From assembly GCA_902500055.1 (NCBI GenBank), contig GCA_902500055.1_4131.1: 64,000 nucleotides of DNA; one strand, given 5' to 3'. Below are positions 3,888 through 24,316 of this stretch, piece after piece. Numbering within the stretch: the stretch's first letter is position 1; every line of letters starts with the position of its first letter. The notes beneath the pieces were generated by a model. The model worked only from the letters and a program-made list of their open reading frames with translations, searched no databases and was not told where the DNA came from. Source of the DNA: Escherichia coli (GTDB lineage Bacteria > Pseudomonadota > Gammaproteobacteria > Enterobacterales > Enterobacteriaceae). A program made the translations under genes and the position numbers.

Positions 3888-3907
3888 GATAAAACTCCTT
3901 AATTTAG

Positions 3908-3970
3908 GAGGGAGAACCATTTCCCCCTCTCTATGTAAAACATTATACTTGATTCTAAGTACTATGCAAG
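3908..3970 (-). promoter_or_regulatory. promoter plus 5' stem-loop cassette (PeSL-like)
   Basis: Minus strand: -35 TTGCAT (3964-3969), 16 nt, -10 TATAAT (3942-3947), then hairpin GGGAGAACCATTTCCCC. Confidence 0.55.
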
Positions 3971-3976
3971 TACTTT

Positions 3977-4309
3977 TTACATTTTAATACCTGGATTCAG
4001 GTAGCGGTGAGATCCATATTCTGGATCGGTTTCGGTCCAGTACTGTAAATCGATAGTACCTTTCGCGTTAATCTTGTCTACCAGCTTATTCATCTTAGCG
4101 TATACTACATCAGCATCGATGCGTTTAAAGCCAGTGGCTTTAGTGAAGTAGTAGTGATTTGCTTCACTATCATTCAGGATGTACCGAGAACCGTTTGCCG
4201 TTTGTGCGATAATGATTGAGTATTCTACGTTACGGTCGAGGCCGTCGATGAATACAGAGGAAACATTAGTACGGATGAAAGCTTTAACGATAGCGATTGA
4301 AGTAGTCAT
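3977..4309 (-). CDS. hypothetical protein
   Basis: ORF track 110 aa; RBS AGGAG upstream. Confidence 0.6.
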   Translation of the reverse strand: MTTSIAIVKAFIRTNVSSVFIDGLDRNVEYSIIIAQTANGSRYILNDSEANHYYFTKATGFKRIDADVVYAKMNKLVDKINAKGTIDLQYWTETDPEYGSHRYLNPGIKM

Positions 4310-4511
4310 TTTGAATCTCCTAACTTTGTGGGCCGTCGCACCATTGCCGCCCTACGAGATACATTATTGCAGTACTGATATACTTTGTCAATACTTTTTT
4401 TATTAATAGTTTTCACTCCACCAGCAGATAGTTACTCACCGTTATTAACTATATATTTTGGATACACTTATGCACCCTGTGGGCTAGTTTTTGTCTATGC
4501 GTATATAATAG

Positions 4512-4555
4512 CAAAGGGACTGACCGGAGTCAATCCCTTTTTTTATTCTTTTTTG
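4512..4555 (-). terminator. UNCG-tetraloop intrinsic terminator (bidirectional)
   Basis: Hairpin GGGACTGACCGGAGTCAATCCC flanked by A-run and T-run. Confidence 0.5.
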
Positions 4556-4756
4556 TTAGATGATTCTCCAATCATCAACGATCATGGTAAGATACCGAAC
4601 CAGTGATTCGAGTGATTCGTGTTCTCGATAGTCTGCCGCACCGCCAGCGGTACAAGTACAGCCGATTAAGCCGTTTTGCAATTCCTTAATCTGTACATCG
4701 ATAAGGTTGGCTTTAGCTTCTTTCAGTACTTCAACCAGGGCGATAGCGATAGACAT
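4556..4756 (-). CDS. hypothetical protein
   Basis: ORF track 66 aa. Confidence 0.55.
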   Translation of the reverse strand: MSIAIALVEVLKEAKANLIDVQIKELQNGLIGCTCTAGGAADYREHESLESLVRYLTMIVDDWRII

Positions 4757-4778
4757 AATGTTTTACTCCAAACTATTG

Positions 4779-4842
4779 GCGGGAGAACTATTCCCCCGCT
4801 CTATGTAAAACATTATACATTACTGGTTAGTACTGTCAAATA
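4779..4842 (-). promoter_or_regulatory. promoter plus 5' stem-loop cassette (PeSL-like)
   Basis: -35 TTGACA (4835-4840), 17 nt, -10 TATAAT (4812-4817), hairpin GGGAGAACTATTCCCCC. Confidence 0.55.
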
Positions 4843-4846
4843 GTTT

Positions 4847-5104
4847 TTATGAAATATCTTCGATGTAGTCGGCCCATTTCATTTTTTCAGTACTGTCAAG
4901 TGCAATCGGATTGCTAGGATCAAACCATTCACCATTCCCGCAATACATCCCCACGGCGACGGTTTTATATCCATCCTGGGCCGCACTCCACGACATTGCA
5001 CGATAGATATGGCCTTTAACTGGTTGCAGTACTGGTAACGTTTTATGGTCTTCTACGTAGGCCATAGCTTGAGGATTTACCCGATATTGTGTGAATTGAT
5101 CCAT
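4847..5104 (-). CDS. hypothetical protein
   Basis: ORF track 85 aa. Confidence 0.55.
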   Translation of the reverse strand: MDQFTQYRVNPQAMAYVEDHKTLPVLQPVKGHIYRAMSWSAAQDGYKTVAVGMYCGNGEWFDPSNPIALDSTEKMKWADYIEDIS

Positions 5105-5180
5105 TATGTTTCCCCTTGTAGTTAGTAAAGTTATTACATCAGTACTATCAAGCTATGTCAATAGTACTGAAATAAAACTT

Positions 5181-5405
5181 TTAGATTAGATTATTGAGGC
5201 CGTTGATGGTAGACTCGCTTTCTTCTTTCTCCCATTGGCGGTAGTACTTCCATGCTTCATGATATGTGGCGATTAGTTCATCTTTTTGATCCTGGTTACA
5301 TGCCAGTACTGAATCACGGTGAGCGGTGTTATAGATAGAATCGAATGATTTCTTCTCTTCTGCCAGGTTAGCTACTTCCCGCATCAGTTCATCAAAGTTA
5401 GCCAT
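5181..5405 (-). CDS. hypothetical protein
   Basis: ORF track 74 aa. Confidence 0.55.
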   Translation of the reverse strand: MANFDELMREVANLAEEKKSFDSIYNTAHRDSVLACNQDQKDELIATYHEAWKYYRQWEKEESESTINGLNNLI

Positions 5406-5421
5406 TTTATTACTCCTTTTA

Positions 5422-5482
5422 GTGGGGGAGGATATCTCCCCCTATGCAAAACATTATACTTTGTTTTAGTTATTATGCAAGT
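5422..5482 (-). promoter_or_regulatory. promoter plus 5' stem-loop cassette (PeSL-like)
   Basis: -35 TTGCAT (5475-5480), 16 nt, -10 TATAAT (5453-5458), hairpin GGGGGAGGATATCTCCCCC. Confidence 0.55.
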
Positions 5483-5736
5483 ACTTTTTTCATATAAACA
5501 TTAAATTCTACACCGCCGTAACCTTCCACGATGATATGTTTTGCGTTATCACGCTTGCACATAGTGAAACCGTTGTTGATATGTTCTGCATTTTCCAGGG
5601 ATACATCACCGATTGCAGCACATACGGCACTAATAACAGTATTCCGCAAAGTACTGGTATCATTAGCGGTCATAGTAGTTTGCAGTACTACGTTGTCGTA
5701 TACGTGTGCATTGATAGTGATTTCGATAGTGTTCAT
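5473..5736 (-). CDS. hypothetical protein
   Basis: ORF track; start trimmed to Met19 (MNTIEITI) with GGAG RBS. Confidence 0.55.
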   Translation of the reverse strand: MNTIEITINAHVYDNVVLQTTMTANDTSTLRNTVISAVCAAIGDVSLENAEHINNGFTMCKRDNAKHIIVEGYGGVEFNVYMKKVLA

Positions 5737-5754
5737 GGTGTATCTCCTGGACTT

Positions 5755-5818
5755 GAGGGGAAACCATTTCCCCCTCTCGATATAAAACATTATACGTTAA
5801 TCTAACTACAATGCAAGT
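5755..5818 (-). promoter_or_regulatory. promoter plus 5' stem-loop cassette (PeSL-like)
   Basis: -35 TTGCAT (5811-5816), 16 nt, -10 TATAAT (5789-5794), hairpin GGGGAAACCATTTCCCC. Confidence 0.55.
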
Positions 5819-5823
5819 ACTTT

Positions 5824-6015
5824 TTAAATTTTATTTCCGATATAGTCCGGCATGTTCTTTTCAGTCATACGCTTTGCTAATGTCTGCATATGGCTTATAG
5901 CGTTCAAGGTGTCTTCCTCCAGGGATGAATCAAGATAATCAGGATCATTCTTCACCTTGCAATGATTATGATAGCGTAGTACAGCCAGTACTTTTTTAAC
6001 TTCTTCAACTGTCAT
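5824..6015 (-). CDS. hypothetical protein
   Basis: ORF track 63 aa. Confidence 0.5.
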   Translation of the reverse strand: MTVEEVKKVLAVLRYHNHCKVKNDPDYLDSSLEEDTLNAISHMQTLAKRMTEKNMPDYIGNKI

Positions 6016-6284
6016 AATAAGTACCCCACTTCGTTAGCTTTCAGGTTAGTATCAATCATCAGTGGATTTTTGTAGTTCACAAAACGATTAGTTTTCTCGA
6101 TAGCGAATCCCATATAATCCAGCTTGCTTACAGTACATTCATTCTTAAAAACTTCTTTCGCTGTATCGATGGCTGATTGCATGGATAACCGCCCATCTAA
6201 ATTAATGTTTCCAAATGATCCACCAGCAGAAGTAGGATTACCGTTCATATCTTTAATGATCATAGTAGCGGAGTAGCTGGACAT
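6012..6284 (-). CDS. hypothetical protein
   Basis: ORF track 90 aa; ATGA overlap with downstream gene. Confidence 0.55.
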   Translation of the reverse strand: MSSYSATMIIKDMNGNPTSAGGSFGNINLDGRLSMQSAIDTAKEVFKNECTVSKLDYMGFAIEKTNRFVNYKNPLMIDTNLKANEVGYLL

Positions 6285-6372
6285 AATTTTGTTTCCTTTT
6301 ATTGGTGGGGGAGAACTATTCTCCCCTTGATGTAAACTATTATACAGTACTGATATACTTTGTCAAATACTT

Positions 6373-6777
6373 TTATTCGCCCATATAGATTAAGTTATCA
6401 TCGCCTACATAGGGATCGCAAACGTTGATTTCTTCGCAGTACTTCGTGAATACATCGCCATAGTGACCTAAACCACGATCCCAAAAACCAGTTCCGTGAC
6501 CTTCGCGGGTAAGGAACAGATCATGACCAGCTTGCTCATAACCGTAATCAATAAACATACCGCGAACTACTTCCAGATCATTACCGTGTTTCTCAATGAA
6601 GCGAGAACATGCAATCACCGCCGCTTGACGTGCTTCATCAGATAACTCATAATCTTCCAGGTAATCGCCGTTATCATTATGTACAGTACTGAATTGCATA
6701 GCTTCAATGTAACCAGCGACCATTGCAGCATGATTTTTATCGTTGGCGATATTCCGAGCAAGATTAGTAGTAGTCAT
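6373..6777 (-). CDS. hypothetical protein
   Basis: ORF track 134 aa. Confidence 0.6.
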   Translation of the reverse strand: MTTTNLARNIANDKNHAAMVAGYIEAMQFSTVHNDNGDYLEDYELSDEARQAAVIACSRFIEKHGNDLEVVRGMFIDYGYEQAGHDLFLTREGHGTGFWDRGLGHYGDVFTKYCEEINVCDPYVGDDNLIYMGE

Positions 6778-6861
6778 GATTTTATTCCTTTTAGTATCGG
6801 GGAGAACTATTCTCCCCTTGATGTAAACTATTATACAGTACTAAGATACTTTGTCAAATAC

Positions 6862-7083
6862 TTAATTACGTTTAAAATGATATGTACCTTTATCATCCTG
6901 TACGCCCCATACTGATTTACCATCAACACCAGTGAAGCCGGATTGTAATTCAATATGGAAACCATTATTATCAACTACAAAAACTTTTTTATTTTCATCC
7001 CGATAACATTGATATTCTGAATCAACATTAAAGGCCGCATCATTCAGACGATTGGAAGCGTAAATGCAAGTCATTGTAGTCAT
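6862..7083 (-). CDS. hypothetical protein
   Basis: ORF track; start trimmed to Met12. Confidence 0.5.
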   Translation of the reverse strand: MTTMTCIYASNRLNDAAFNVDSEYQCYRDENKKVFVVDNNGFHIELQSGFTGVDGKSVWGVQDDKGTYHFKRN

Positions 7084-7264
7084 GATTTTATTCCTTAATA
7101 TACCAGGGAGAACCATTTCCCCCTCTCGATATAAAACATTATACTTGATTCTAAGTACAATGCAAGTACTTTTTAAAAAATAGTTTTCAGTACTGAATAC
7201 TTATATAATAGATACACTTCCGCACCCTATGGGTCAGTGAGTTATCTCTCAATGGATATATAAT

Positions 7265-7300
7265 AGCAAAGGGACTGACCGGAGTCAATCCCTTTTTTAA
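7265..7300 (-). terminator. UNCG-tetraloop intrinsic terminator (bidirectional)
   Basis: Hairpin GGGACTGACCGGAGTCAATCCC 7271-7292, T-run on plus side. Confidence 0.5.
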
Positions 7301-7306
7301 TCTTTT

Positions 7307-7891
7307 TTATCGTGTTACCTTACTTGCTGCCACATCACGCTTTTTATAGTACTGATTCCAGATATTGCAGGTTAAACCGTAATCAAGTACTTTAATAAGG
7401 CCATTACGATCCTGGCCGATATTCTGTTTTCTGATATCTCTTATCGTTAGTGTTGATAATGTATCATCGACGTGTTGTAGTGCATCAGCAAAGCGGTGCT
7501 GGCGTTCGATTGCATTACGTTTAATATTGTACTTTAATTCATTGCACGCGTTTACGTGCTTCACACTACCTTTGCTTGCAGTACTCAACCGATCCATAAC
7601 GATAAACATATTATCAGGATCGCATAAATGCATATGCACCTTTGCAAAGTACTGTTTCAACTGAGGGCGGTCATAGTCTAAAAAATTCCATACCTTACAT
7701 TCAGTTTCATTTTGTTCTACACCCGCATCACAATTCGCGACCTTAATCACTAACCGATCATTTAAAGCGAAAACTATACGGGAAGAACCAGCACCGATGA
7801 TCTCCAGGCCAGCTAACCGACAAGCTGAAAGGATCTCTTTGTTGGTTTCCATTTCTGACAGTGTACGGATGAATTTAGTATAATTACGCAT
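7307..7891 (-). CDS. eukaryotic-like Ser/Thr protein kinase
   Basis: Gly-rich loop IGAGSSRIVF, VIKV lysine, catalytic loop IRDIRKQNIG, DFG-like IKVLDYG; start trimmed to Met20 with AAGGAGAA RBS. Confidence 0.7.
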   Translation of the reverse strand: MRNYTKFIRTLSEMETNKEILSACRLAGLEIIGAGSSRIVFALNDRLVIKVANCDAGVEQNETECKVWNFLDYDRPQLKQYFAKVHMHLCDPDNMFIVMDRLSTASKGSVKHVNACNELKYNIKRNAIERQHRFADALQHVDDTLSTLTIRDIRKQNIGQDRNGLIKVLDYGLTCNIWNQYYKKRDVAASKVTR

Positions 7892-7922
7892 TGCATGTTC
7901 TCCTTGAGTTAATGAAACTATA

Positions 7923-8165
7923 TTACAGTACTTTACTATCAATGGCAACTACTTTTTTAACATTAACGGCGTGGATCACTTCCTTCGTGTTTTTAGTACT
8001 GAATACTTTCGCCGCTCCTTGTTCGACCGTGATACGATAGCGACCATTAACATCAACCATATTAATAAAGTCCGGCGTGCTGAATGGTGTTGTTTTACAT
8101 TTGAGTACTGTTAACAGTTCCACCAGCGATGTAGTTTCTTTGATACGTTTTTCTAAAGTAATCAT
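7923..8165 (-). CDS. hypothetical protein
   Basis: ORF track; start trimmed to Met20; upstream 57 nt is a repeated promoter (TTGACA-17-TACTAT). Confidence 0.5.
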   Translation of the reverse strand: MITLEKRIKETTSLVELLTVLKCKTTPFSTPDFINMVDVNGRYRITVEQGAAKVFSTKNTKEVIHAVNVKKVVAIDSKVL

Positions 8166-8222
8166 TTTGTTTCCCCCGTGTTGGTATGTACATATAGTAC
8201 TAAAACATTTGAGTACTGTCAA

Positions 8223-8441
8223 TTAGATAATATTATATTTCTTTAAAGATAATGCGTCTTGGGTTGGCTGATACTCGATACCGTTCCCATTATTGACTTC
8301 AACTAATAAACCTTTGTCAATTAGTTTTTTAATAGTACGATACCCCTGTTGAAAATTGGTAAAATGTGAATCATTACGAAAGGTATAACCGTGCTTAACT
8401 GCTTCATCAATAGTTTTCTTTTCGATTTTAGATAATTTCAT
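8223..8441 (-). CDS. hypothetical protein
   Basis: ORF track; start trimmed to Met20; same repeated upstream cassette as 7923-8165. Confidence 0.5.
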   Translation of the reverse strand: MKLSKIEKKTIDEAVKHGYTFRNDSHFTNFQQGYRTIKKLIDKGLLVEVNNGNGIEYQPTQDALSLKKYNII

Positions 8442-8494
8442 TTTGTTTCTCCCGTGTTGGTATGTGTACATAATACTAAAACAATTGAGTACTG

Positions 8495-8749
8495 TCAACG
8501 TGATATTAGTTTTATTTTCTTATTATATTGTTGGTGTTCATATAGGTTTATTTTTCCTGTGTTCTCTATTACTATTCTGTTGTTAGTGTCCACATCGATT
8601 ACACGCAGTTTCCCGTTGCTTAACTTCCTTGGTAATAGGTTACCATTAATAAACTCATTAGCAAGCTGTACGGCCTTTGTGATGATTCTCTTCGGTGCTT
8701 TATAGTGTACCCGTAAGATGTTATCTTTATATAGTTGAACCTTAATCAT
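8495..8749 (-). CDS. hypothetical protein
   Basis: ORF track 84 aa. Confidence 0.5.
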   Translation of the reverse strand: MIKVQLYKDNILRVHYKAPKRIITKAVQLANEFINGNLLPRKLSNGKLRVIDVDTNNRIVIENTGKINLYEHQQYNKKIKLISR

Positions 8750-8761
8750 TTTGTTTGTCCT

Positions 8762-8789
8762 ATAAAAAAGGCGGGATCAGTTCCCGCCG
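8762..8789 (-). terminator. intrinsic terminator
   Basis: Minus strand hairpin GGCGGGAACTGATCCCGCC followed by T-run. Confidence 0.55.
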
Positions 8790-8810
8790 TGTTGTTAGTA
8801 CTGCAAGTTA

Positions 8811-9206
8811 TTAGATAACCTGGCGGCGTTTACTGTATACTGTTACACGATTACCCTTACGATCATGTCGGATCTCTTTCTGGTTGCGAATCAGTTCACT
8901 TGGACGCTTAAGGTTTGCCAGGTGATCCGCGTGAGTCCATGCGGTGTGGTTTACCTGTACTTTGATATCAGAATCAGCGATAAACTCATCTTGTGCGTCA
9001 AGTATTGCCGCCAGCATATCCGCTCGTTTTAGTTCTGCTGCTGTTAGTACTGGCTCAGGTGAATTCACAATATCAGAGATTTCTTTGAACTGTACGGCCC
9101 AGCGTTGACCTTTCGGTGCTGTCGTTCCCATGTCTTTAAATGCTGCTCCTTCCTCGCGTGCAACAATACGGGCAGCTTCACGGGTAGCGTAGAATTTAGT
9201 AATCAT
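8811..9206 (-). CDS. hypothetical protein (paralog of 20866-21132)
   Basis: Shared motifs YFATRE.AR, FKDMG, RWAV, RKGNRVTVY. Confidence 0.6.
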   Translation of the reverse strand: MITKFYATREAARIVAREEGAAFKDMGTTAPKGQRWAVQFKEISDIVNSPEPVLTAAELKRADMLAAILDAQDEFIADSDIKVQVNHTAWTHADHLANLKRPSELIRNQKEIRHDRKGNRVTVYSKRRQVI

Positions 9207-9301
9207 GGTATACATCCTATTAGTTGAGTTAGTACTACAAGTTAGAGTCTATTATAAAGTACTATCTGGGCAATGTCAAATAGTACTTTAAATGGATTCT
9301 A

Positions 9302-9625
9302 TTACATGTCTTTCTTACGTTTTACATCGTAGTAGCGAACTGTTATTTCTTTGTTAATCTCTTTTTCGATGCGGTGAATAACTTTTTCTTTCGGGTTGAA
9401 ACCTATAACGGTTTCTTTAATGATCTCCAAACCAGTGTATTCGCCTTGCGTACCGTAACCGTATGTAAAGGTTTCGTGTCCCAGGTCTTCCCAGCGGTCG
9501 CCAATTAACGCAGACACGTAGCAAGAGTGGTAAGTATTGCCGTTCCGATCAGTCCAGCGATTAACTTTAATGTCAAAGGAGGTTACAATTTTCAATTCCA
9601 CTTTCTGGGTAAGGATCATAGCCAT
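9302..9625 (-). CDS. hypothetical protein (paralog of 15258-15602)
   Basis: ORF track 107 aa; shared YGYG core and C-terminal VKRKKD. Confidence 0.6.
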   Translation of the reverse strand: MAMILTQKVELKIVTSFDIKVNRWTDRNGNTYHSCYVSALIGDRWEDLGHETFTYGYGTQGEYTGLEIIKETVIGFNPKEKVIHRIEKEINKEITVRYYDVKRKKDM

Positions 9626-9712
9626 TTTTATTTCTCTCTCTTTGTTAGGAGGGGAACCATTTCCCCGCCTTGATGTAAACTATTATACAGTACTAAGATA
9701 CTTTGTCAATAC

Positions 9713-9988
9713 TTAAGTATTGTAAATGTCGTGAATAGTGATAAAGTTTTTACGCCCGTAAACCTGTAAATCGGTATTAATGTAATGCTTATCAAGTACA
9801 TCCTCGACGCTTAAAGCCGTGTCGTGAATATCTTCGTAGAATTGAGGATCTACAATCTTGCTTAAGTCATCCGGCGTTAACTTATCGTTAAGCCATTGAA
9901 CCGCCTGGATATCTGCATCACGTTTCCATTGTTCCAGGTTAGTAGTCAGTACTTGTTCGATTTCGTTAGCTGTCAGTAGAATCCGCAT
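9713..9988 (-). CDS. hypothetical protein
   Basis: ORF track 91 aa; preceded by long duplicated leader. Confidence 0.55.
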   Translation of the reverse strand: MRILLTANEIEQVLTTNLEQWKRDADIQAVQWLNDKLTPDDLSKIVDPQFYEDIHDTALSVEDVLDKHYINTDLQVYGRKNFITIHDIYNT

Positions 9989-10002
9989 TTTAATGTTTCC
10001 TT

Positions 10003-10190
10003 ATCAGTGGTTGATGTAAGTATTATACTCGTTTACTTTCTATTGTCAAACTATTTTATCAGGGGAGTTTTTCGTATGTCTTACTCCTGGACTACTTAAC
10101 GGGGTTACTTGTTTCGTTCCCCGTCCTGATGTAAAACATTATACTTGATTCTAAGTACAATGCAAGTACTTTTTAAAAATAGTTTTCAGT
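10003..10190 (-). repeat. duplicated leader cassette with tandem promoters (copy 1 of 2)
   Basis: Near-identical to 20138-20320; contains TTGACA-16-TATAAT plus PeSL-type promoter and two hairpins. Confidence 0.6.
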
Positions 10191-10312
10191 ACTTGATAGT
10201 ACTAGCCACCAGCAAACAATAGATACATTTATGCACCCGGTGGGCTAATTTGTTTCTATGCGTATATAATAGCAAAGGGACTGACCGGAGTCAATCCCTT
10301 TTTCAATTATTT

Positions 10313-10462
10313 TTAAACTTCTTTCGGGTTGCGATAGGTGATAGCGTTCGGGTACATTTGTTTAATGTTATTCCATGCCTGGTTAACATTATAACCACTT
10401 GAGCGAATCAGTTGGTTACTACCGACACCTTGAAACACTACTTCAAATAAGAATTCTTTCAT
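10313..10462 (-). CDS. hypothetical small protein (49 aa, below ORF-track cutoff)
   Basis: Manual translation MKEFLFEVVFQG...; ATGA overlap with upstream gene stop. Confidence 0.4.
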   Translation of the reverse strand: MKEFLFEVVFQGVGSNQLIRSSGYNVNQAWNNIKQMYPNAITYRNPKEV

Positions 10463-10632
10463 GCTTTCACCTCGCTATCTGCTTTGCCTTTACGCCAGGC
10501 CGTTGCTAATTGTTCGCGTTGCCATAAGTCGAGTGATACGTAAAGTTTTGCATTATCACCCTTCGGATATTCGCCAGTAGTACCAATCCGATAAAACAGA
10601 TCTTTCAGTACTGTTAATTCTACCTGGACCAT
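10459..10632 (-). CDS. hypothetical small protein
   Basis: ORF track; start trimmed to Met35 (MVQVELTV) with AGAGGA RBS. Confidence 0.5.
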   Translation of the reverse strand: MVQVELTVLKDLFYRIGTTGEYPKGDNAKLYVSLDLWQREQLATAWRKGKADSEVKA

Positions 10633-10718
10633 TATACTTTCCTCTTTGTTAGGAGGGGAACTATTCCCCTTCCGATATAAAACATTATACACTTTATTCA
10701 GTACAGTGCAAGTACTTT

Positions 10719-10931
10719 TTAATCTTTCAGCCAATGATCCTGAATGAATTTTTCACCGAAACCTTGCTGCATTGATTGTAACAGACGTTCGCGATGAGCG
10801 GCGGCGAATTGCTCAGTACTATGCGTTACACCTGGTTGATATCTGGATTCACCATTGGGGGCGATGTATTGTACATCCCACGGTTTTTCGTTAGTATCAG
10901 ACCATTTACGAACGATTAGTTGACCTTGCAT
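10719..10931 (-). CDS. hypothetical protein
   Basis: ORF track 70 aa. Confidence 0.5.
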   Translation of the reverse strand: MQGQLIVRKWSDTNEKPWDVQYIAPNGESRYQPGVTHSTEQFAAAHRERLLQSMQQGFGEKFIQDHWLKD

Positions 10932-11017
10932 TTTTCTTTCCTCTTAGTGGGGAGAATCATTTTCTCCCCTTCATGTAACTTATTATACAGTACTATAATC
11001 TATTGTCCAGTACTTTT

Positions 11018-14578: not shown

Positions 14579-14583
14579 ATTAA

Positions 14584-15177: not shown

Positions 15178-15257
15178 TATACGATCCTCTTAAGTTAATT
15201 TAATTTCTTTCCCCTATGCAGACACTATATCAAAGTATCTGCATAAAGTAAAGCTAA

Positions 15258-15602
15258 TTAAAGATCTTTTTTGCGTTTAACATCAGTTACCGAACTGTAA
15301 ACAGTGATATTATTGTCACGGCAAAAACGGGAAAGATAAGAACCGCGTAAAAACTCTTTATCTTCCATATTAATAACCTTGCTAAATTCTTCCATTGCTA
15401 CAGTGTCAAAGTGATCCCCGTATCCATATTGGAACGGCACGTTTACTACTTCAATAAAATTACCATCAATTTCTACGTCTACACTTAAAGAGAAATAAGT
15501 GTTACCATATGAAGCCTGGAACCAACGCCGAGCGGCAATATGTACAACTTCAACAGAAGACAGGTTGATATTTTGTTTTGCGATAGTGTTGATATTAGCC
15601 AT
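15258..15602 (-). CDS. hypothetical protein (paralog of 9302-9625)
   Basis: ORF track 114 aa; shared C-terminal VKRKKD and YGYG core. Confidence 0.6.
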   Translation of the reverse strand: MANINTIAKQNINLSSVEVVHIAARRWFQASYGNTYFSLSVDVEIDGNFIEVVNVPFQYGYGDHFDTVAMEEFSKVINMEDKEFLRGSYLSRFCRDNNITVYSSVTDVKRKKDL

Positions 15603-15690
15603 TTTAATTTCCTCTTAGTTGTCTTGATAAAATCTATTATGCCAGTACTATCAAACTATGTCAATAGTACTGTGATAATATTTTTACTTA
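15603..15690 (-). repeat. about 90 bp promoter-region direct repeat (second copy 15897-15990)
   Basis: TTGTTTCCTCTTAGTTGTCTTGATAAAATCTATTATGCCAGTACTATCAAACTATGTCAATAGTACTGTGATAATATTTTTACTTAC occurs twice. Confidence 0.7.
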
Positions 15691-15896
15691 CTTTCTTTCG
15701 CTGCTTTGTGCGTTGCCACTGCCATAACCACATCAGCACGAACAAAGTTTTTTACCGTGTCAGTGTAGTAATTGATTGCATCGTCAACATCTGTAAAAAT
15801 CCGATACATGCCGCACCACGATACTTTATAACCTTCTTTCACTTCTTCCAGCTTAACCAGTGATTTGTTTACTTTGATTTTTGTGATGATAGCCAT
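15684..15896 (-). CDS. hypothetical protein
   Basis: ORF track 70 aa. Confidence 0.55.
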   Translation of the reverse strand: MAIITKIKVNKSLVKLEEVKEGYKVSWCGMYRIFTDVDDAINYYTDTVKNFVRADVVMAVATHKAAKESK

Positions 15897-15977
15897 TATT
15901 GTTTCCTCTTAGTTGTCTTGATAAAATCTATTATGCCAGTACTATCAAACTATGTCAATAGTACTGTGATAATATTT

Positions 15978-16121
15978 TTACTTACTTTTTGCTTTCTTTG
16001 CTGCTTCCACCTGGTCGGCCCACTCTTTACCCCATACCTGAGCGTTATAGTGATACTGACAAAGAGCAACGCCCCGCTTTAAACCAGTAATAGATTTCTG
16101 ACCACATTGACAAGTTTTCAT
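15978..16121 (-). CDS. hypothetical small Cys-containing protein (47 aa)
   Basis: Manual translation MKTCQCGQKSITGLKRGVALCQYHY...; AAGGAAA RBS. Confidence 0.4.
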   Translation of the reverse strand: MKTCQCGQKSITGLKRGVALCQYHYNAQVWGKEWADQVEAAKKAKSK

Positions 16122-16207
16122 TTTAGTTTCCTTGTAGTGGGGAGAACCATTTTCTCCCCTTGATGTAATGTATTATACTTTATTCGATTTACTTTGCAAG
16201 TACTTTT

Positions 16208-16435
16208 TTAATTTAATTCATCAAGGCAAAGGATACGCTCAACGCCCAAATCAGTTAAACTAATCGACGGCACTTGATAGGTTTCAATGTATGCTACACT
16301 TGCCCACTGACCGAACTCATTAACGGCCCAGGTATTCATTGCATTTTGCAATTCCGCACCTTCCTTGTTGGTAATGACTGCAACTACTTGTTCGTTGCCA
16401 GTAGTACCAGATACGCGAGTAATGATAATAGCCAT
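16208..16435 (-). CDS. hypothetical protein
   Basis: ORF track; start trimmed to Met20. Confidence 0.5.
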   Translation of the reverse strand: MAIIITRVSGTTGNEQVVAVITNKEGAELQNAMNTWAVNEFGQWASVAYIETYQVPSISLTDLGVERILCLDELN

Positions 16436-16669
16436 TGTTTTGATTCCTTTGATTTGGAAGGAGAACCGTTTCCCCCTCTCGATGTAAAACATTATACGCT
16501 AATCTCTTAATCGTGCAAGTACTTTTTATTACTTTTTGCAAAATACTTTAAACGCACTCAATCGCATTCTAACGACTTTAACGCCACCAGCTAGGGCAAT
16601 GCATCAGATAAACAGTTTAATACGTTAGAATCGTTTCTAGGCGGTGCTGGTGGCCTGGTAAACGATAAA

Positions 16670-16700
16670 CACAAAAAAGCCCACTGTATAAGTGGGCTAA
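16670..16700 (-). terminator. intrinsic terminator
   Basis: Minus strand hairpin AGCCCACTTATACAGTGGGCT followed by TTTTTTGTG. Confidence 0.55.
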
Positions 16701-16719
16701 TGATTCAGTACTTTAATTG

Positions 16720-17202
16720 TTATGCTTCAACTTTGCGATGAGCTTCGATCCATTCCTCGCGAGTCATACCACTGGAGTTAATCGCATCCAGTACTACCGC
16801 AATGCAGTTACCACGCACCGGAATCAGATATTCTTCCCCGTTATCAAGTACTACCGCTACACGTTCTTGAATCCATTTTTTAGCTTTTACTTCTGGCTTA
16901 TCTTCACCGTACTTTTTCGCCAGGGCTTTTTGTGCCATCTCTGTAACTACTTCCAGATCCAATCCAACTACTGCCGCCTGAATACTTTCAATTGTTGCTT
17001 GTAGTTCTGCTTCACGGGCCGCCTTTGCCGCTTCAATTTCTGCCGCTTTATTTGCTTGTAGTTCTTTCGCAGTACTGTAAGCGATGTTAAAATTATTGCG
17101 TACCGCTTTCATGGTATCGTTATCCAGTTCAGCCAGGATCTCAGCCGCGACGTTAGTTTCATTTGCTACCAGTGCTTTGATGAATGATTTTACATTAGCC
17201 AT
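16720..17202 (-). CDS. hypothetical Ala-rich coiled-coil protein
   Basis: ORF track; start trimmed to Met6 with GAGGA RBS. Confidence 0.6.
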   Translation of the reverse strand: MANVKSFIKALVANETNVAAEILAELDNDTMKAVRNNFNIAYSTAKELQANKAAEIEAAKAAREAELQATIESIQAAVVGLDLEVVTEMAQKALAKKYGEDKPEVKAKKWIQERVAVVLDNGEEYLIPVRGNCIAVVLDAINSSGMTREEWIEAHRKVEA

Positions 17203-17401
17203 TTTATAAATCCTCAATTAAAGTTTAGTTTACGTTTATTAGTGTATCAAAGTTTTCTCGACGTGTCCAGTTTTTCGTTCGACTTACTGGCGGTCTACTT
17301 AGTGCTCCCCGTCTTGATGTAATACATTCTACGCTTTTCTGCGGTAATGTCAACTACTTTCTTAAAACTATTTTCAAAGTATCTCAGTACTACGATACTA
17401 C

Positions 17402-17431
17402 AAAAACAAAAAAAGCCCACCAGGTGGGCTA
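17402..17431 (-). terminator. intrinsic terminator
   Basis: Minus strand hairpin AGCCCACCTGGTGGGCT followed by TTTTTTTGTTTTTG. Confidence 0.6.
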
Positions 17432-17436
17432 TGTAC

Positions 17437-17667
17437 TTAATCAGTGAGTAAAATATTAAACACTTTACCATTTAACGTTATTGGTGCACTGCTACCAGGC
17501 TCAAGATCCGTTAATATACCTGCAATCGCTTTATCATTGGCGACCTTTCCAGTGTCCAACAGTACTACAGTACTGATAAGATTAACGCTCGTTTCAATAT
17601 CATAATGCACGGCGTTAAGTAGTTGTGTAGTACTGCTTTCGTTAAGTAAAACAATTCGCTTAGTCAT
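17437..17667 (-). CDS. hypothetical protein
   Basis: ORF track 76 aa. Confidence 0.5.
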   Translation of the reverse strand: MTKRIVLLNESSTTQLLNAVHYDIETSVNLISTVVLLDTGKVANDKAIAGILTDLEPGSSAPITLNGKVFNILLTD

Positions 17668-17688
17668 GATGTTACCCCGTAGTATCTA

Positions 17689-17988
17689 TCAACGGCAATT
17701 AATAACGCCGGTATGCGTTACTTTCTCAGTATCCATTACAGTGACCGAACCGCGTTTAGTACTGGCATCATAATAAATTGTCGTGCTACCGTTTTCGTCT
17801 TCTTCATGGAACGGGCCGTTTTTAAATGCTTCCGGCTGAATCTCCAGATCCTTTAATACAATCTCGCCAGTACTTTCATCGGTCATTGCAACAGTGCACT
17901 GAATGAATTTTTCACTACTTACATCTAATGACGCATTAACAGCGAAAGAGGAAACAGATAAAGCCAGGGCGATGATTGTAATTTTCAT
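17689..17988 (-). CDS. secreted protein (signal peptide)
   Basis: N-terminus MKITIIALALSVSSFAVNAS. Confidence 0.55.
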   Translation of the reverse strand: MKITIIALALSVSSFAVNASLDVSSEKFIQCTVAMTDESTGEIVLKDLEIQPEAFKNGPFHEEDENGSTTIYYDASTKRGSVTVMDTEKVTHTGVINCR

Positions 17989-18072
17989 TTGATTATCCTT
18001 AGTTACCAGGGGGAACCGCTCCCCCTTGCGATGTAAAATATTATACAGTACTAAAAACTATTATCAAGTACT

Positions 18073-18309
18073 TTATGATTTTTTATAAAACATTTCAGCA
18101 GTGATATTTTTACCCGTTGGCTGTACTTTATCCAGAATTTTTTGATGCCCTGGTCGTCCAAAGGAATATGATCCGTAAACAGTAAACCAGTAGTTGCCAT
18201 CAGTGTTTACATGTACAGCACAATAGGGTACGCCCCGCGATTCATCACTAGTAAAGTGTGCTACCGTTCCCGTTACATTCGAAGTCGTTGATTTGATTTG
18301 TTCAAGCAT
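18073..18309 (-). CDS. hypothetical protein
   Basis: ORF track 78 aa. Confidence 0.5.
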   Translation of the reverse strand: MLEQIKSTTSNVTGTVAHFTSDESRGVPYCAVHVNTDGNYWFTVYGSYSFGRPGHQKILDKVQPTGKNITAEMFYKKS

Positions 18310-18553
18310 TTTATTATTCCTTAGTTACCAGGGGGAACCGCTCCCCCTATGCAAAACATTATACGCGTTTAAAAACTAATTGCAAGTATTTTAATAAAAA
18401 GTATTTGAAAAATAGTTGTTGACAAGTGCATCCAGTACTGGCATAATTACTACATCAAGACGAAACAGTCACTAACCCACCGGGTGCCGAGATCCGTCTA
18501 TTAAATGATTCAGTACTGAAAAAGTAACGGGGAGTTATTATCTCCCCGCGTTG

Positions 18554-18775
18554 TTATTTTGTAAGGTATAAACAGAAGTCGCCTTTATTTGCTACGCCGC
18601 CAGTGTAACGCGATGAATAGTTAGAAACGTCCTGGACTTCTGCTATTACCAGGGTATCATCATTCAATTCGTCGCAGAAGCAAACGGCTGGATCTTGTAC
18701 GCCGATTTTGTCGGCATGTTCCCGCATAGATTTCACCAGTGCTTCCAGTTGGGAAAGAGTAGTGATATTAGCCAT
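18554..18775 (-). CDS. hypothetical protein
   Basis: ORF track; start trimmed to Met11. Confidence 0.5.
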   Translation of the reverse strand: MANITTLSQLEALVKSMREHADKIGVQDPAVCFCDELNDDTLVIAEVQDVSNYSSRYTGGVANKGDFCLYLTK

Positions 18776-18863
18776 TTTATTTTCCTCATTACCAGGGAGA
18801 ACCATTTCTCCCTTTGATGTAAACCATTATACAGTACTGAAAACTAATTGCAAGTACTTTTTT

Positions 18864-19124
18864 TCAGTATTGTTTATCGTCGTCTTCCTCGATGAATTGA
18901 CCGACGAAATGATCTACTTTCGCTTTGAGGCTTTTATAATCTTCTTCTACTTCCGTTAAACGTTCCTGGTAGTATTCCAGTGCCTCAAGATACGCCGCCT
19001 CAGCAGTTTTTGCACGCATAGCTAAATTCATTCCACGCGTTTCATCATAAAGCCAATAACCATCGGTGCACTGGCTAATAGATAATGACTTGCTTAGTGC
19101 TGTATAGCTAATTACTTTACTCAT
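18864..19124 (-). CDS. hypothetical protein
   Basis: ORF track 86 aa. Confidence 0.5.
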   Translation of the reverse strand: MSKVISYTALSKSLSISQCTDGYWLYDETRGMNLAMRAKTAEAAYLEALEYYQERLTEVEEDYKSLKAKVDHFVGQFIEEDDDKQY

Positions 19125-19181
19125 TAGATAACCCTCAGTAAAGGCGGGAACTATTACCCGCCATTATCTCAGTACTGAATA

Positions 19182-19421
19182 TTACATTCCAACCATTGCA
19201 GCACGGATCGCCGTAGTGCTATACTTGAATCCGTCCGGCGTTGTAGTAGTACCGTTGGCTTTTAATCTGCGGTACATACATTCCGCAGCAATATCTTTCG
19301 TTTTACTTTGTGCGATGCAATTTTGAGCAATCCGGTATAATGATTCATCGTTATTGATCCAAAGGCTTACATTCCAATGAGTTTTGTTTTTGTGCCCGTT
19401 GTAAGTTTTAGTACTAGCCAT
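19182..19421 (-). CDS. hypothetical protein (paralog of 21221-21460)
   Basis: Shared HKNKTHWNVSLWINNDE and TPDGFKYSTTAIRAAMVGM. Confidence 0.6.
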   Translation of the reverse strand: MASTKTYNGHKNKTHWNVSLWINNDESLYRIAQNCIAQSKTKDIAAECMYRRLKANGTTTTPDGFKYSTTAIRAAMVGM

Positions 19422-19511
19422 TTTTAAATCCTCGTTTGAGCGGGGAACCACTCCCCGCCTTGATGTAAAGTATTATACGCTTTTAAACTTAGTTTACAAG
19501 TACTTTTTAAA

Positions 19512-20120
19512 TTAATATTCGATTGATTCCACTACGCCATCAATAACATTGAATTGATATTCGTTACCCTCAATCAGTGCAGTAATGTTTTCAGTAGTGA
19601 ATTGATCCTCATATGCATTCTCTAAATCACGGTACAACTTACGAGATAATTCACGGATCGCATCAGTCAGTAAGTTTTCCAGATCCTCAGCCAATGCCGC
19701 CTGTTTTACAGTTAAATCAGTGTAGCGAGTATCAACGCAACCGCCTACCGTGTTTTCGTGTGCGTAGCGTGATTGGAAACGTTCTACACTCATTTCTAAA
19801 TCATCCTCGTTCAACAGGTGACGGATTGAACGATATTTCGTTAACGCCTTAACCTTGCGTAAAAACTTCTCAGCGTCAACGTGGTTAGTACTGATTGATG
19901 CACCGTCACCTTGCGACCAAAAACCACTGTATTGCAATTCAGCTTCATCTATGCCGTATTCTGGTAGTACTGTTTCTTTATAGTACTCGATAACGCCCTC
20001 AGCAAAGAAATTATCCTCACATGAACGCTCACGATCCCGAACCAGTTCAATAGCCGCCGTTTTTTGTTCTGCGTTCAGTTCAGAAAAAGCCATAACAAAA
20101 GTAGTAGTGATAGTTTTCAT
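19512..20120 (-). CDS. hypothetical acidic protein
   Basis: ORF track 202 aa; GAGGG RBS; preceded by duplicated leader. Confidence 0.6.
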   Translation of the reverse strand: MKTITTTFVMAFSELNAEQKTAAIELVRDRERSCEDNFFAEGVIEYYKETVLPEYGIDEAELQYSGFWSQGDGASISTNHVDAEKFLRKVKALTKYRSIRHLLNEDDLEMSVERFQSRYAHENTVGGCVDTRYTDLTVKQAALAEDLENLLTDAIRELSRKLYRDLENAYEDQFTTENITALIEGNEYQFNVIDGVVESIEY

Positions 20121-20137
20121 TTTGTAACCCTCATTCA

Positions 20138-20320
20138 GTAGTTGATGTAAGTATTATACGCTTTTACTTTCTATTGTCAAACTATTTTATCAGGGGAGTT
20201 TTTCGTGTGCCTTACTCCTGGGCTACTTAACGGGAAGTTACTTATTTCGTTCCCCGTCCTGATGTAAAACATTATACGCCTTTAAACATAGTTTACAAGT
20301 ACTTTTTAAAAATAGTTTTC
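20138..20320 (-). repeat. duplicated leader cassette with tandem promoters (copy 2 of 2)
   Basis: Near-identical to 10003-10190. Confidence 0.6.
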
Positions 20321-20547
20321 AGTACTGAATATTAAAAAAAAGTATTGACAGCATTATCAAGTACTGGCATAATATACCCCATGACAACAGCTAACCCACC
20401 GGGTGCACAATTGTAACTATACTAAACTAATTTTTCTATAGATACACTCCCGCACCCTATGGGCTACGGCTTATCTGCCAATGAATACATTATGCCAGTA
20501 CTGACAAAATAAGTCAATACCGGCAATTGTAAAGATTTGTAAACTGC

Positions 20548-20784
20548 TTATACTGCAATCGCGTCCAGGCTGTAATAATAATAAGTGCCGTATTGGTGTA
20601 CTTTATTACCTTTTATTTCAGTACTGAATGAATCCGAACGGTTTGCATATGATGTTAATTTAAAGTACTTTGATTTGCTGATACGTTGCCATACACCACA
20701 GATCCGCTGTAAGTAAGTAGTTTTATTCGTGGTAGTATCTTTTACGGTTTTAACTTCAGTCATATACATATTAGTCATTTTCAT
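20548..20784 (-). CDS. hypothetical protein
   Basis: ORF track 78 aa. Confidence 0.45.
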   Translation of the reverse strand: MKMTNMYMTEVKTVKDTTTNKTTYLQRICGVWQRISKSKYFKLTSYANRSDSFSTEIKGNKVHQYGTYYYYSLDAIAV

Positions 20785-20865
20785 TACTCCAGGTTATAGG
20801 CGGGAAGAGTTCCCGCTCTCGATGTAAAACATTATACGCTTTTATCAGTACGGTGCAAGTACTTT

Positions 20866-21132
20866 TTATTCAAGTACTGCAATCTTTTTAGTACGGTACA
20901 CGGTCACGCGGTTGCCCTTTCGGTCGAGCTTTATTTCTACCACTCGACGCGATACACTATCGGGACTTTTTAAGGCCGCTAACCAGTACTGTAATGATCT
21001 GGCCGTACTACGCTTTACAATGGCCCAACGTTCACCACTTGCCGATCCCGCTCCCATATCTTTAAACGTTGCCCCGTCCTGGCGTGCGGCGATCCGAGCT
21101 TGTTCACGCGTCGCAAAATACTTAATATTCAT
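20866..21132 (-). CDS. hypothetical protein (paralog of 8811-9206)
   Basis: Start trimmed to Met13; shared motifs with 8811-9206. Confidence 0.6.
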   Translation of the reverse strand: MNIKYFATREQARIAARQDGATFKDMGAGSASGERWAIVKRSTARSLQYWLAALKSPDSVSRRVVEIKLDRKGNRVTVYRTKKIAVLE

Positions 21133-21220
21133 GTTGTTGCCCTTATCGTTGGTGTATGAATAAAACACTATTATAAAGTACTATCCCCGTGCAATAGTAC
21201 TTTAAATAAATTCTATTCTA

Positions 21221-21460
21221 TTACATTCCAACCATAGCCGCACGGATCGCAGTAGTGCTATATTTGAATCCGTCCGGTGTTTTATCTTGTCCAGTCTGTT
21301 CTAAAAATAACATCATATGACGGGCCGCATCATTGCGATTAGTATTGGCGGCAATAAAGTCCAGGGCCAACCGATACAATCCCTCATCGTTATTAATCCA
21401 CAGGCTTACATTCCAATGAGTTTTGTTTTTGTGACCTAAGAACATTTTTGATTTAGCCAT
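21221..21460 (-). CDS. hypothetical protein (paralog of 19182-19421)
   Basis: Start trimmed to Met14; shared motifs. Confidence 0.6.
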   Translation of the reverse strand: MAKSKMFLGHKNKTHWNVSLWINNDEGLYRLALDFIAANTNRNDAARHMMLFLEQTGQDKTPDGFKYSTTAIRAAMVGM

Positions 21461-21552
21461 TTTTTTAATCCTCTTATATAGTGGGGAACTATTCCCCACC
21501 TGATGTAAAACATTATACGCTTTTATTCAGTACTGTCAAACTAATTTTTAAC

Positions 21553-21915
21553 TTATTCGTAAATTTTGCCACTGTCAGCCCATACCAGGAAACGAGGCAT
21601 ATTATCCCATGCATCTTGTTTTAAATTTAAACCGTGTAATACTTCTGTACTTTCCATTCCTGGTACTGGTTTACTATACACCGCGAAATTTTCGCCCATA
21701 TACTGATAAACCATCGTCAAATCACTGGCGATCATCTTATGGATCATCGCATCAAGCATCACGGTGGCGGCGTATTGTTCACGCTTAAGCGGCAGCATTT
21801 TAATCAGTTCGCGGTATGCGTCAATGTGAGTTTTAACCGTTGCCGCCGGAAGATCTTTCATATCGTCGCGGAAGTTAACCAGGTTAGCAATGATTTTAGT
21901 GATTTGAGTCGCCAT
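21553..21915 (-). CDS. hypothetical protein
   Basis: ORF track 120 aa. Confidence 0.55.
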   Translation of the reverse strand: MATQITKIIANLVNFRDDMKDLPAATVKTHIDAYRELIKMLPLKREQYAATVMLDAMIHKMIASDLTMVYQYMGENFAVYSKPVPGMESTEVLHGLNLKQDAWDNMPRFLVWADSGKIYE

Positions 21916-22027
21916 CGTTTTAATCTCTTAAAAGTGAGTAGGGAAGTGTTCCCGCTCTCGATGTAAAACATTATACGCTTTTTTCAGTACTGTGCAAGTA
22001 CTTTCTACAAATACTTTTAAAATAGTT

Positions 22028-24315: not shown

Positions 24316-24316
24316 A

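Follow-up and report, generated by a model that had tools for sequence, protein, structure and literature searches.

Promoter-early stem-loops (PeSLs) are repeated cassettes reported from the phages RB49/phi1, PST/T4 and nt-1/KVP40 (Arbiol et al., 2010, PMC2839356; Comeau et al., 2014, PMC4122927). They combine a sigma-70-like early promoter, an AT-rich upstream tract and a GGGG...CCCC stem-loop, and they lie mostly upstream of ORFans in hyperplastic regions (PMC2839356). PeSLs mediate indels and form mini-circles, and in RB49 the stem-loop was interpreted as a terminator (PMC2839356). The DNA studied here, referred to as the window, is a 64,000-nucleotide (nt) stretch of contig GCA_902500055.1_4131.1 from the Escherichia coli assembly GCA_902500055.1. 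It carries a minus-strand array (3895-22010) of ~80-nt repeated units, in which a promoter, a hairpin and a ribosome-binding site recur before small genes. These cassettes, which lie in the terminal repeat of a jumbo phage and are shared among phage families, appear to be a PeSL-like variant whose hairpin is part of the leader RNA.

Like PeSLs, the window cassettes are intergenic units of ~80-100 nt with an AT-rich tract, a strong sigma-70-like early promoter, a stem-loop, a Shine-Dalgarno (SD) sequence and an ATG. Both occur in dozens of copies before small genes of unknown function in a variable region, and both are sites of indels or replacements between close relatives. PeSL stem-loops sit within the promoter core or upstream of it: between the two boxes, over either of them, ahead of the -35 or immediately before the start site. 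Those of RB49 (GGGGATC..GATCCCC, for example TTGACAGGGGATCACCGATCCCCTATAAT) occupy the -35/-10 spacer or span the -10 and are outside the PeSL's own transcript, whereas every window hairpin lies downstream of the predicted start and within its own transcript. The stem-loop of the jumbo-phage version would be a leader RNA element rather than part of the promoter. The window hairpins also lack a following T-run, the array fills a direct terminal repeat (DTR), and the phage belongs to Asteriusvirus rather than Straboviridae. RNA-level covariation was found for the window hairpins, and none has been reported for PeSLs. A sequence-only reading of this DNA had matched the cassettes to the PeSLs of T4-type phages; the match holds for composition, setting and gene gain or loss at the units, and it fails for stem-loop placement, the T-run, sequence homology and the type of phage. 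The window cassettes would extend the PeSL idea, of regulatory cassettes that double as recombination linkers, to jumbo-phage terminal repeats and rV5-like phages.

A cassette profile built from 10 copies and run over the window identified 27 full-length cassettes, every one of them within 3903-22005 and on the minus strand (E 1e-7 to 5e-22), as well as one further cassette at 49682-49612 and ~8 promoter-only partial copies (Table 1). A family-independent scan was also used, which requires a sigma-70-like promoter followed after 6-18 nt by a helix of >=6 bp with >=4 G-C pairs. It found 23 sites on the minus strand of the terminal repeat and one on the plus strand of the whole window; 100 dinucleotide shuffles averaged 0.1 sites and never had more than 1. 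Both searches bear out the repeated unit described by the sequence-only reading, and the unit can also be seen by eye on the minus strand of 3.5-24 kb. That reading counted about 25 copies before genes; of the 27 found, three (-10 at 10143, 20276 and 17331) are long variants without an adjacent open reading frame (ORF). The statement of the sequence-only reading that most genes are preceded by the unit was too generous: a full cassette lies directly upstream of 24 of about 49-56 genes in the repeat, or about half, and a promoter without a hairpin lies upstream of ~11 more. The ORFs preceded by cassettes are small, and records of related phages label them hypothetical proteins.

The elements of the cassette follow a fixed order: an A-tract (AAAAA(G)TAC), the -35 hexamer, a 16-nt spacer, TATAAT, a start region, the hairpin, the SD and the ATG. 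The AAAAA(G)TA tract precedes the promoter in 27 copies. At the -35, 15 copies have TTGCA(T/A/C) and eight have TTGACA, and eleven perfect (12/12) matches to TTGACA-16/17-TATAAT occur on the minus strand. The -10 had been described as TG-extended, but a promoter scan finds no TG before the second hexamer in any cassette TATAAT promoter, and TG belongs to other local promoter classes; G is present at -13 in 27 of 28 copies and T at -14 in about 40%. A conserved start region, g/a-tTTtACATca(a/g) (gttttACATca), follows the -10. The hairpin begins 10-13 nt past the -10 in most copies (mode 12, range 8-16 with outliers). Its 5' arm is GGGGAGAA, GAGGGGGAA, GGCGGGGAA or similar, with a matching 3' arm after a variable 3-5-nt loop, so that the stem is G-rich on its 5' side and C-rich on its 3' side. 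Stems are 7-9 bp, with one degenerate stem of 5 bp. Hairpin and ATG are separated by 15-25 nt (about 19), which contain AAGAGGAAA, AAGGAA or AGGAG; the ATG is 46-56 nt past the -10.

This anatomy affects gene annotation. As noted in the sequence-only reading, mechanically called ORFs often start inside the cassette, either at the ATG of TATAATG or in an ATG-containing hairpin loop, and recognizing these two places gives a simple rule for correct start codons. The loop ATG, present in 13 of 27 copies, was considered as the start of a leader peptide and rejected: frame and stop are not conserved, GGAG is ~2 nt from the ATG, and the loops of relatives lack an ATG.

Covariation between paired positions separates an RNA helix from other uses of an inverted repeat. 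A covariance model was built from nine gapless copies (28-nt seed), replacing a MAFFT alignment of whole cassettes in which stems were mis-registered. Its search of the window alone picked up reverse-strand palindrome matches and was not used for counting. From the window and eight relatives the model collected 127 hairpins (52 distinct). Standard pairs make up 91% of the cells in this alignment, and both-side changes are present at six of the nine pairs. Although the alignment was fitted to the model, which favors structure, the margin is large: there are 44 compensatory cells, compared to 9.5+-2.5 in 500 shuffles, none of which reached 44, and sliding the partner by 1-3 columns leaves at most seven. 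The most variable pair is AU in 19, GC in 16, GU in 14 and AC in none. Among 68 distinct hairpins there are 49 G.T and 15 A.C combinations, and at the most variable pair the counts are 16 and 1. This wobble bias is strand-specific and therefore fits a sense-strand RNA helix rather than a protein operator or a cruciform. Selection for base pairing in the transcribed strand maintains the hairpin, so the hairpin works as RNA. The ~70 natural variants of one small hairpin are also a resource on how promoter-proximal stem-loops affect mRNA life and translation in E. coli.

Folding predicts -12 to -16 kcal/mol for the cassette hairpins and leaves both SD and ATG single-stranded at minimum energy in all eight leaders folded. 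An intrinsic terminator has a T-rich run within 0-2 nt of its GC-rich hairpin. No such run follows any of the 27 cassette hairpins, and the scan classes none of them as terminator-like; their tails are ACTAAGAG, GGTAATAA, CCTAACAA and similar. Promoter-less hairpins with the same kind of stem (8788-8770 and 18549-18527) do carry T-runs, and further T-run hairpins are at 10301, 13691, 16698 and 17430. By sequence the cassette hairpin is not a canonical intrinsic terminator, and with the SD left open it is predicted not to mask the ribosome-binding site. An Rfam E-value scan of 1-26000 found no relevant family, only a weak and unrelated Trp_leader match at 16671-16735 (E 0.065, below the gathering score).

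Positions 3500-12000 of the window match 87 phage records at 80-99% identity, nearly all of them Escherichia/Salmonella jumbo phages of the genus Asteriusvirus, including 121Q, PBECO4, G17, fEgEco12 and Sharanji. The window is Asteriusvirus (121Q/PBECO4-like jumbo coliphage) DNA. The DTR of fEgEco12 is 20,993 bp as determined by PhageTerm and restriction digests (PMC13070987), and that of Sharanji is 20,668 bp (PMC11895373). By alignment, position 1 of the G17 record corresponds to window 3056, and position 1 of both fEgEco12 and CRJP21 corresponds to window 23652. Record starts and published DTR sizes therefore place the terminal repeat at window 3056-23652, and the cassette array is wholly within it. 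In the packaged genome, the left-end copy of the repeat is transcribed inward, away from the physical end. RpoD-like promoters with an UP element have been predicted in CBB (PMC5259590), and PA5oct depends on host RNA polymerase (PMC7318152). The window cassettes are probably early-expression units read by the host sigma-70 RNA polymerase. Phage T5 also has early genes that depend on host RNA polymerase in a long direct terminal repeat. Its pre-early region is ~10 kb and has few genes, and to our knowledge the T5 repeat has no repeated promoter-hairpin cassette.

The ends and flanks of the repeat have features of their own. The ~1.6 kb at 22010-23652, which adjoins the physical genome end (fEgEco12 position 1), contains few ORFs. 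It has numerous GATTCAGTACTGA repeats, and GGCTAGA/GGCTAAACGGCTAGA tandem-like repeats occur at ~22750-22900. The first promoter of the terminal repeat is at ~23260-23287. On either side of the DTR, at 207-2958 and 23926-26095 (minus strand), are dense and often overlapping ORFs of 60-90 aa without intervening cassettes. Relatives carry the same flanking small-ORF arrays in variable copy number.

Gene content was compared by aligning the terminal-repeat regions of eight relatives to the window by blastn per locus and chaining the alignments. Of 47 distinct breakpoints, 25 are within 20 nt of a full cassette, a zone that makes up 15.7% of the repeat (binomial 3e-9; none of 100,000 uniform draws gave as many). 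Most of the remaining breakpoints are at hairpin-less promoter cassettes. At twelve junctions, cassette homology overlaps by 45-123 nt. At 6372..6766 the window has 393 additional nt (one gene and one cassette); in five relatives a single hybrid cassette, which aligns to both window copies over 99 nt, replaces the cassette with its -10 at 6344, the gene at 6373-6777 and the cassette with its -10 at 6835. Other junctions with extra window sequence are 14158..14314 (+155, overlap 74), 18075..18349 (+273, overlap 45), 5489..5766 (+276, overlap 56) and 5828..7105 (+1276, overlap 73). Relatives have an extra gene and cassette at 9726..9619, 11018, 12835..12774, 16448..16478 and 18863..18877. Replacements of similar length are at 15283..15595 and 19161..19510. 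The gene between the promoter-only copies at 8442-8498 and 8166-8222 is missing in TH47, SP27 and SD-2_S15. These alignments give good support to the view that related phages have gained, lost or swapped genes at cassettes. Judged by the homology at the junctions, the cassettes appear to have recombined homologously with one another, which has also been proposed for PeSLs. Such recombination would explain why the early region is the main site of gene-content variation in Asteriusvirus.

Integron cassettes and phage "morons" are comparable in that small genes travel as units, joined to a structured linker or carrying expression signals of their own. The window cassettes have no integrase or attC chemistry, and their exchange resembles ordinary homologous recombination between ~80-nt repeats; morons lack a common linker.

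The cassette is not restricted to one genus. A single cassette matches 51 phage records, including Asteriusvirus, Klebsiella phage fENko-Kae01, Erwinia phage Hallingskeid and the rV5-like phages A73 and W70, and the match in fENko-Kae01 is within its annotated terminal repeat. A generic scan found seven promoter-hairpin-SD units each in fENko-Kae01 and Hallingskeid, with variants of their own such as TTGCAT-16-TATAAT-ggtttgcata-GGGGGAA-acatc-TTCCCCC. A73 (Vequintavirinae) has two cassettes 85-90% identical to those of the window in addition to diverged native copies. A73 and the window have six gene segments in common at 74-85% nucleotide identity, two of them with adjacent cassette sequence; one is window 15982-16497, which corresponds to A73 locus 6030-6540 at 85%. 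The segments are in a different order in the two phages, which points to module exchange between phage families. A pattern scan of IMG/VR returned one contig only and added nothing on distribution. The genome papers of Sharanji, fEgEco12, CBB, RaK2, PA5oct and rV5 report promoters or terminators at most and no promoter-proximal hairpin cassette. The cassette is not annotated in the G17 and fEgEco12 records, and a literature search on rV5-like phages returned no prior description.

A broader proposal is that the promoter-hairpin unit is a shared "linker" by which unrelated coliphage lineages (Rak2-like jumbo phages, rV5-like Vequintavirinae and possibly RB49-like T4 relatives) trade small early genes already equipped for expression, in an integron-like manner without an integrase. 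The hairpin and the hexamer AGTACT, which is part of the promoters in the jumbo-phage copies, would then be recognized by dedicated phage factors that control the fate of early mRNA or promoter shut-off. We consider this proposal fairly improbable.

A search of 90 kb of RB49 with the cassette profile gave no match at E<=10, so no sequence homology of the hairpin cassettes to RB49 is detectable. The 51 records that match a cassette include no T4-like phage. An RB49 PeSL profile matches only hairpin-less cassettes of the window (best 8499-8443, E 4e-6, with part of the score coming from the promoter consensus). Some leader motifs are similar. The ACATACCAACACGGGAGAAACAAAATG motif of window 8442-8498 and 8166-8222 resembles the RB49 leader ACATACCGAAACGAA..GGAGAATCAAAATG, and CATCAAGACGAGA is present in the RB49 ORF190/194 leaders and also at window 12266 (12240-12291) and 18442 (18409-18467, plus strand). 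These motifs may reflect shared ancestry or exchange between T4-like and jumbo phages.

With moderate confidence, we consider each unit a self-contained early cassette with a host-read promoter, an RNA leader hairpin that acts as nuclease barrier and cistron insulator, and a second function as a recombination site. A barrier and insulator is the most likely role for the hairpin. It is favored because the hairpin abuts the ribosome footprint and sits between cistrons in read-through RNA. The hairpin ends ~19 nt before the ATG, which would be the 5' edge of the footprint, and together with the initiating ribosome it would leave almost no naked leader exposed to RNase E. In transcripts that read through from upstream promoters, the hairpin could stop 3'-exonucleases and protect the upstream cistron. 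It may also keep the context of the ribosome-binding site constant regardless of upstream sequence.

Known hairpins resemble this design in part. The ompA leader and the T7 gene 10 leader (GGGAGA...UUUCCC) are stabilizers of highly expressed mRNAs with a 5'-terminal stem-loop and, like the cassettes, have a short hairpin with G-rich and C-rich arms, an A/U-rich spacer and a strong SD. Their hairpins start 0-4 nt from the 5' end, whereas the cassette hairpin is predicted to follow 4-7 unpaired nt and is also internal in read-through RNA. REP/BIME elements and the RNase III-processed junctions of T7 early mRNA are intercistronic hairpins that protect 3' ends; like the cassettes, they are repeated between cistrons and are able to delimit or stabilize upstream segments. 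REPs differ in being longer, not coupled to promoters and located after genes, and the T7 sites are ~25-bp RNase III substrates.

Several points weigh against the self-contained cassette. Its promoters and start sites are predicted, with the start taken 6-8 nt past the -10, and this start leaves 4-7 unpaired nt before the stem. Classical 5'-terminal stabilizers of the ompA type are reported with no more than 2-4, so a stabilizer role of this type would be borderline. Some ~11 genes of the same region have a promoter and leader without a hairpin, so the hairpin is not essential for expression. Intergenic space in the repeat is almost all cassette, and breakpoints in cassettes are not fully separable from breakpoints between genes; therefore only the junctional homology argues specifically for recombination between cassettes. 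RNase E readily bypasses simple orthogonal stem-loops (Richards and Belasco, PMC9943677), and for this reason an obstacle to RNase E scanning was downgraded as the stabilizing mechanism.

The first alternative is that the hairpin is an attenuator or terminator, damping read-through from the many upstream promoters and preventing downstream over-expression. Cumulative transcription is a real issue in the repeat, which ~9 canonical terminators with T-runs split into about nine units with several promoters each. Furthermore, when one PeSL stem-loop comparable in size and composition was inserted between a promoter and lacZ, expression fell to the same extent as with rrnB T1 (PMC2839356). Nevertheless, the absence of T-runs and terminator-like calls from all 27 cassette hairpins, while promoter-less hairpins with the same stem have T-runs, makes attenuation unlikely. 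Because the hairpin is downstream of its own promoter's predicted start, an efficient terminator would also abort its own transcripts ~30 nt after initiation. The RB49 hairpins avoid this difficulty by their place within the promoter.

A site for a protein or nuclease is quite doubtful; candidates are a phage translational repressor, a boxB-like anti-termination factor, a RegB-like GGAG endonuclease and host RNase III. Purines always dominate the 5' arm (GGGGAGAA or GGGGGAA) and pyrimidines the 3' arm, a bias that exceeds the needs of pairing, and the fixed position between start site and SD would suit a regulator. However, stem sequences drift with compensatory changes. Recognition of the boxB type is opposed by the lack of a conserved loop, since loops differ in both sequence and length (3-5 nt). 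A RegB-like enzyme would cut at GGAG, a motif that about half of the 5' arms contain; the other half lack it, and where it occurs it is base-paired. RNase III substrates have roughly 20 bp, about two helical turns, of (interrupted) double helix, and the cassette helices (7-9 bp, 5 bp in the degenerate copy) fall far short of this length. Processing by RNase III, which the sequence-only reading had raised, is therefore unlikely.

It is very unlikely that the hairpin is a functionless passenger spread by duplication and gene conversion of the whole cassette. Near-identical copies are frequent, with 23 instances of GGGGAGAA-atga-TTCTCCCC in nine genomes, and ~11 promoters presumably work without a hairpin. 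The leader at 10027 (ACATCAA|CCACTGATAAGGAAAC) resembles a precise hairpin deletion when compared to the cassette at 6344. Pairing, on the other hand, is kept across 70 distinct hairpin sequences, with compensatory changes far above shuffled and slid controls, and the design persists where cassettes have diverged (Klebsiella, Erwinia and the native A73 copies).

Least probable is a function of the inverted repeat as DNA, either as the operator at which a dimeric repressor would turn early transcription off or as a cruciform or recombination signal: its position (about +5 to +25) is typical of roadblock operators, breakpoints cluster at cassettes, and GGGG...CCCC was suggested as a recombination-protein target by the PeSL authors (PMC2839356), but half-site spacing is not fixed because loop length varies (by up to 2 bp), half-sites co-vary rather than stay conserved, the excess of G.T over A.C is the strand-specific pattern expected of RNA, and hairpin-less promoter cassettes are also junctions (8222..8438, 10061..10007 and 12835..12774), so the hairpin is not needed for exchange.

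Table 1. Cassettes and related features of the window. Cassette rows are based on the profile search plus hairpin reading, with coordinates on the minus strand.
Feature	Position	Strand	-10	Description
Direct terminal repeat	3056..23652	no strand		~20.6 kb; holds 27 of 28 cassettes
Cassette	21916..21997	-	21975	degenerate 5-bp stem GGGAA/TTCCC; gene ATG 21915
Cassette	21461..21539	-	21517	TTGACA; GGTGGGGAA-tag-TTCCCCACT at 21480-21500
Cassette	20785..20858	-	20836	GCGGGAA-ctc-TTCCCGC
Long variant	20189..20298	-	20276	~75-nt structured RNA, no ORF; second promoter 20180-20153
Cassette	19422..19499	-	19477	GGCGGGGAG-tgg-TTCCCCGCT
Cassette	18776..18853	-	18831	AGGGAGAA-atgg-TTCTCCCT
Cassette	18310..18385	-	18363	AGGGGGA-gcggt-TCCCCCT
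Cassette	17989..18067	-	18045	AGGGGGA-gcggt-TCCCCCT
Diverged long variant	17238..17353	-	17331	-10 is TAGAAT; no simple hairpin; long leader, gene start 17202
Cassette	16436..16518	-	16496	GAGGGGGAA-acgg-TTCTCCTTC, two G.U pairs
Cassette	16122..16199	-	16177	GGGGAGAA-aatgg-TTCTCCCC; with flanking genes 85% identical to rV5-like A73
Cassette	14300..14378	-	14356	GGGGAGAA-atga-TTCTCCCC; true start ATG 14299
Cassette	14072..14149	-	14127	GGGGAGAA-atga-TTCTCCCC
Cassette	13484..13562	-	13540	AGGGGAAA-cgg-TTTCCCCT
Cassette	13046..13127	-	13105	TTGACA; GGGGAGAA-aaac-TTCTCCCC
Cassette	11207..11280	-	11258	-10 is TATAGT; AGGGGAA-acatc-TTCCCCT
Cassette	10932..11009	-	10987	GGGGAGAA-aatga-TTCTCCCC
Cassette	10633..10711	-	10689	AGGGGAA-tag-TTCCCCT
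Long variant	10056..10165	-	10143	~75-nt structured RNA (-21 kcal/mol), no ORF; then promoter 10049-10022
Cassette	9626..9709	-	9687	TTGACA; GGCGGGGAA-atgg-TTCCCCTCC, one C.T mismatch
Cassette	7084..7165	-	7143	AGGGGGAA-atgg-TTCTCCCT
Cassette	6778..6857	-	6835	TTGACA; GGGGAGAA-tag-TTCTCCCC
Cassette	6285..6366	-	6344	TTGACA; GGGGAGAA-tag-TTCTCCCC
Cassette	5737..5816	-	5794	GAGGGGGAA-atgg-TTTCCCCTC
Cassette	5406..5480	-	5458	GGGGGAG-atatc-CTCCCCC
Cassette	4757..4839	-	4817	TTGACA; GCGGGGGAA-tag-TTCTCCCGC
Cassette	3888..3969	-	3947	GAGGGGGAA-atgg-TTCTCCCTC; identical in 8 of 8 relatives
Sole full cassette outside the DTR	49607..49681	-		GGGGATGA-acttc-TCATCCCT
Promoter-only cassette	9989..10049	-		TTGACA-16-TATAAT; hairpin-less leader with SD directly after ACATCAA; 121Q and JP4 have an indel junction here
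Promoter-only cassette	12741..12814	-		junction; 8 of 8 relatives have an additional ~200-nt module
Promoter-only cassette, second subfamily	8442..8498	-		TTGACAGTACTCAA...ACATACCAACACGGGAGAAACAAAATG; paired with copy 8166-8222
Promoter-only cassette, third subfamily	15603..15664	-		TTGACA-17-TGgCATAAT, true extended -10; duplicated at 15897-15958
Promoter-less hairpin for contrast	8770..8788	-		same stem type, GGCGGGAA-ctga-TCCCGCC then TTTTTT; canonical intrinsic terminator
ORF-less unit copies		-	4510, 7265, 10271, 13661, 20494, 12266	
ORF-less unit copies		+	18442, 20368, 22300	

The two long variants at 10056-10165 and 20189-20298 were folded singly. Their predicted RNA (-19 to -21 kcal/mol, z -1.7 to -2.8) is closed by AUCAGG/CCUGAU and contains two internal hairpins. 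It has neither an SD nor an ORF, and another promoter comes directly after it. The long variant is conserved in A73 (locus positions 5913-6001).

A further element at 4310-4391 (minus strand) has a TTGACA-17-TGcAATAAT promoter, a weaker GC-rich inverted repeat (GGGCGGCAATGGTGCGACGGCCC) and then an SD. It resembles a second hairpin subfamily of A73 (GCGGCAAtaGCGCCGCC) and coincides with an indel junction in 121Q.

The hexamer found most often in the window is AGTACT, with 296 copies compared to 21.6 expected from base composition. It occurs across the whole window, is densest at 3056-28000 and is absent from 1-3055. It is 16-23x enriched in regions of 121Q, fEgEco12, fENko-Kae01 and Hallingskeid, is not enriched in A73, and is absent from 90 kb of RB49. 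In long ORFs it is present in all three codon phases. The cassettes incorporate it as an overlap with the -35 (AGTAC-TTGCA) and/or immediately next to the -10 (cAGTACTg-TATAAT); 28 x 45 nt of cassette sequence hold 34 copies. A literature search found no paper linking AGTACT and jumbo phages.

The terminal repeat also contains an ORF-less unit in nine copies, which consists of an extended -10 promoter, 25-35 nt, an invariant core (CCCAyMGGGTGC) and a weak G.U-rich hairpin. This unit had no match in the Rfam scan of 1-26000. The copies may be small RNAs or protein-binding sites. Highly expressed non-coding RNAs have been reported from the terminal repeat of PA5oct (PMC7318152). In four of the copies, the promoter is embedded in a terminator hairpin, AAAGGGATTGACTCCGGTCAGTCCCTTT.

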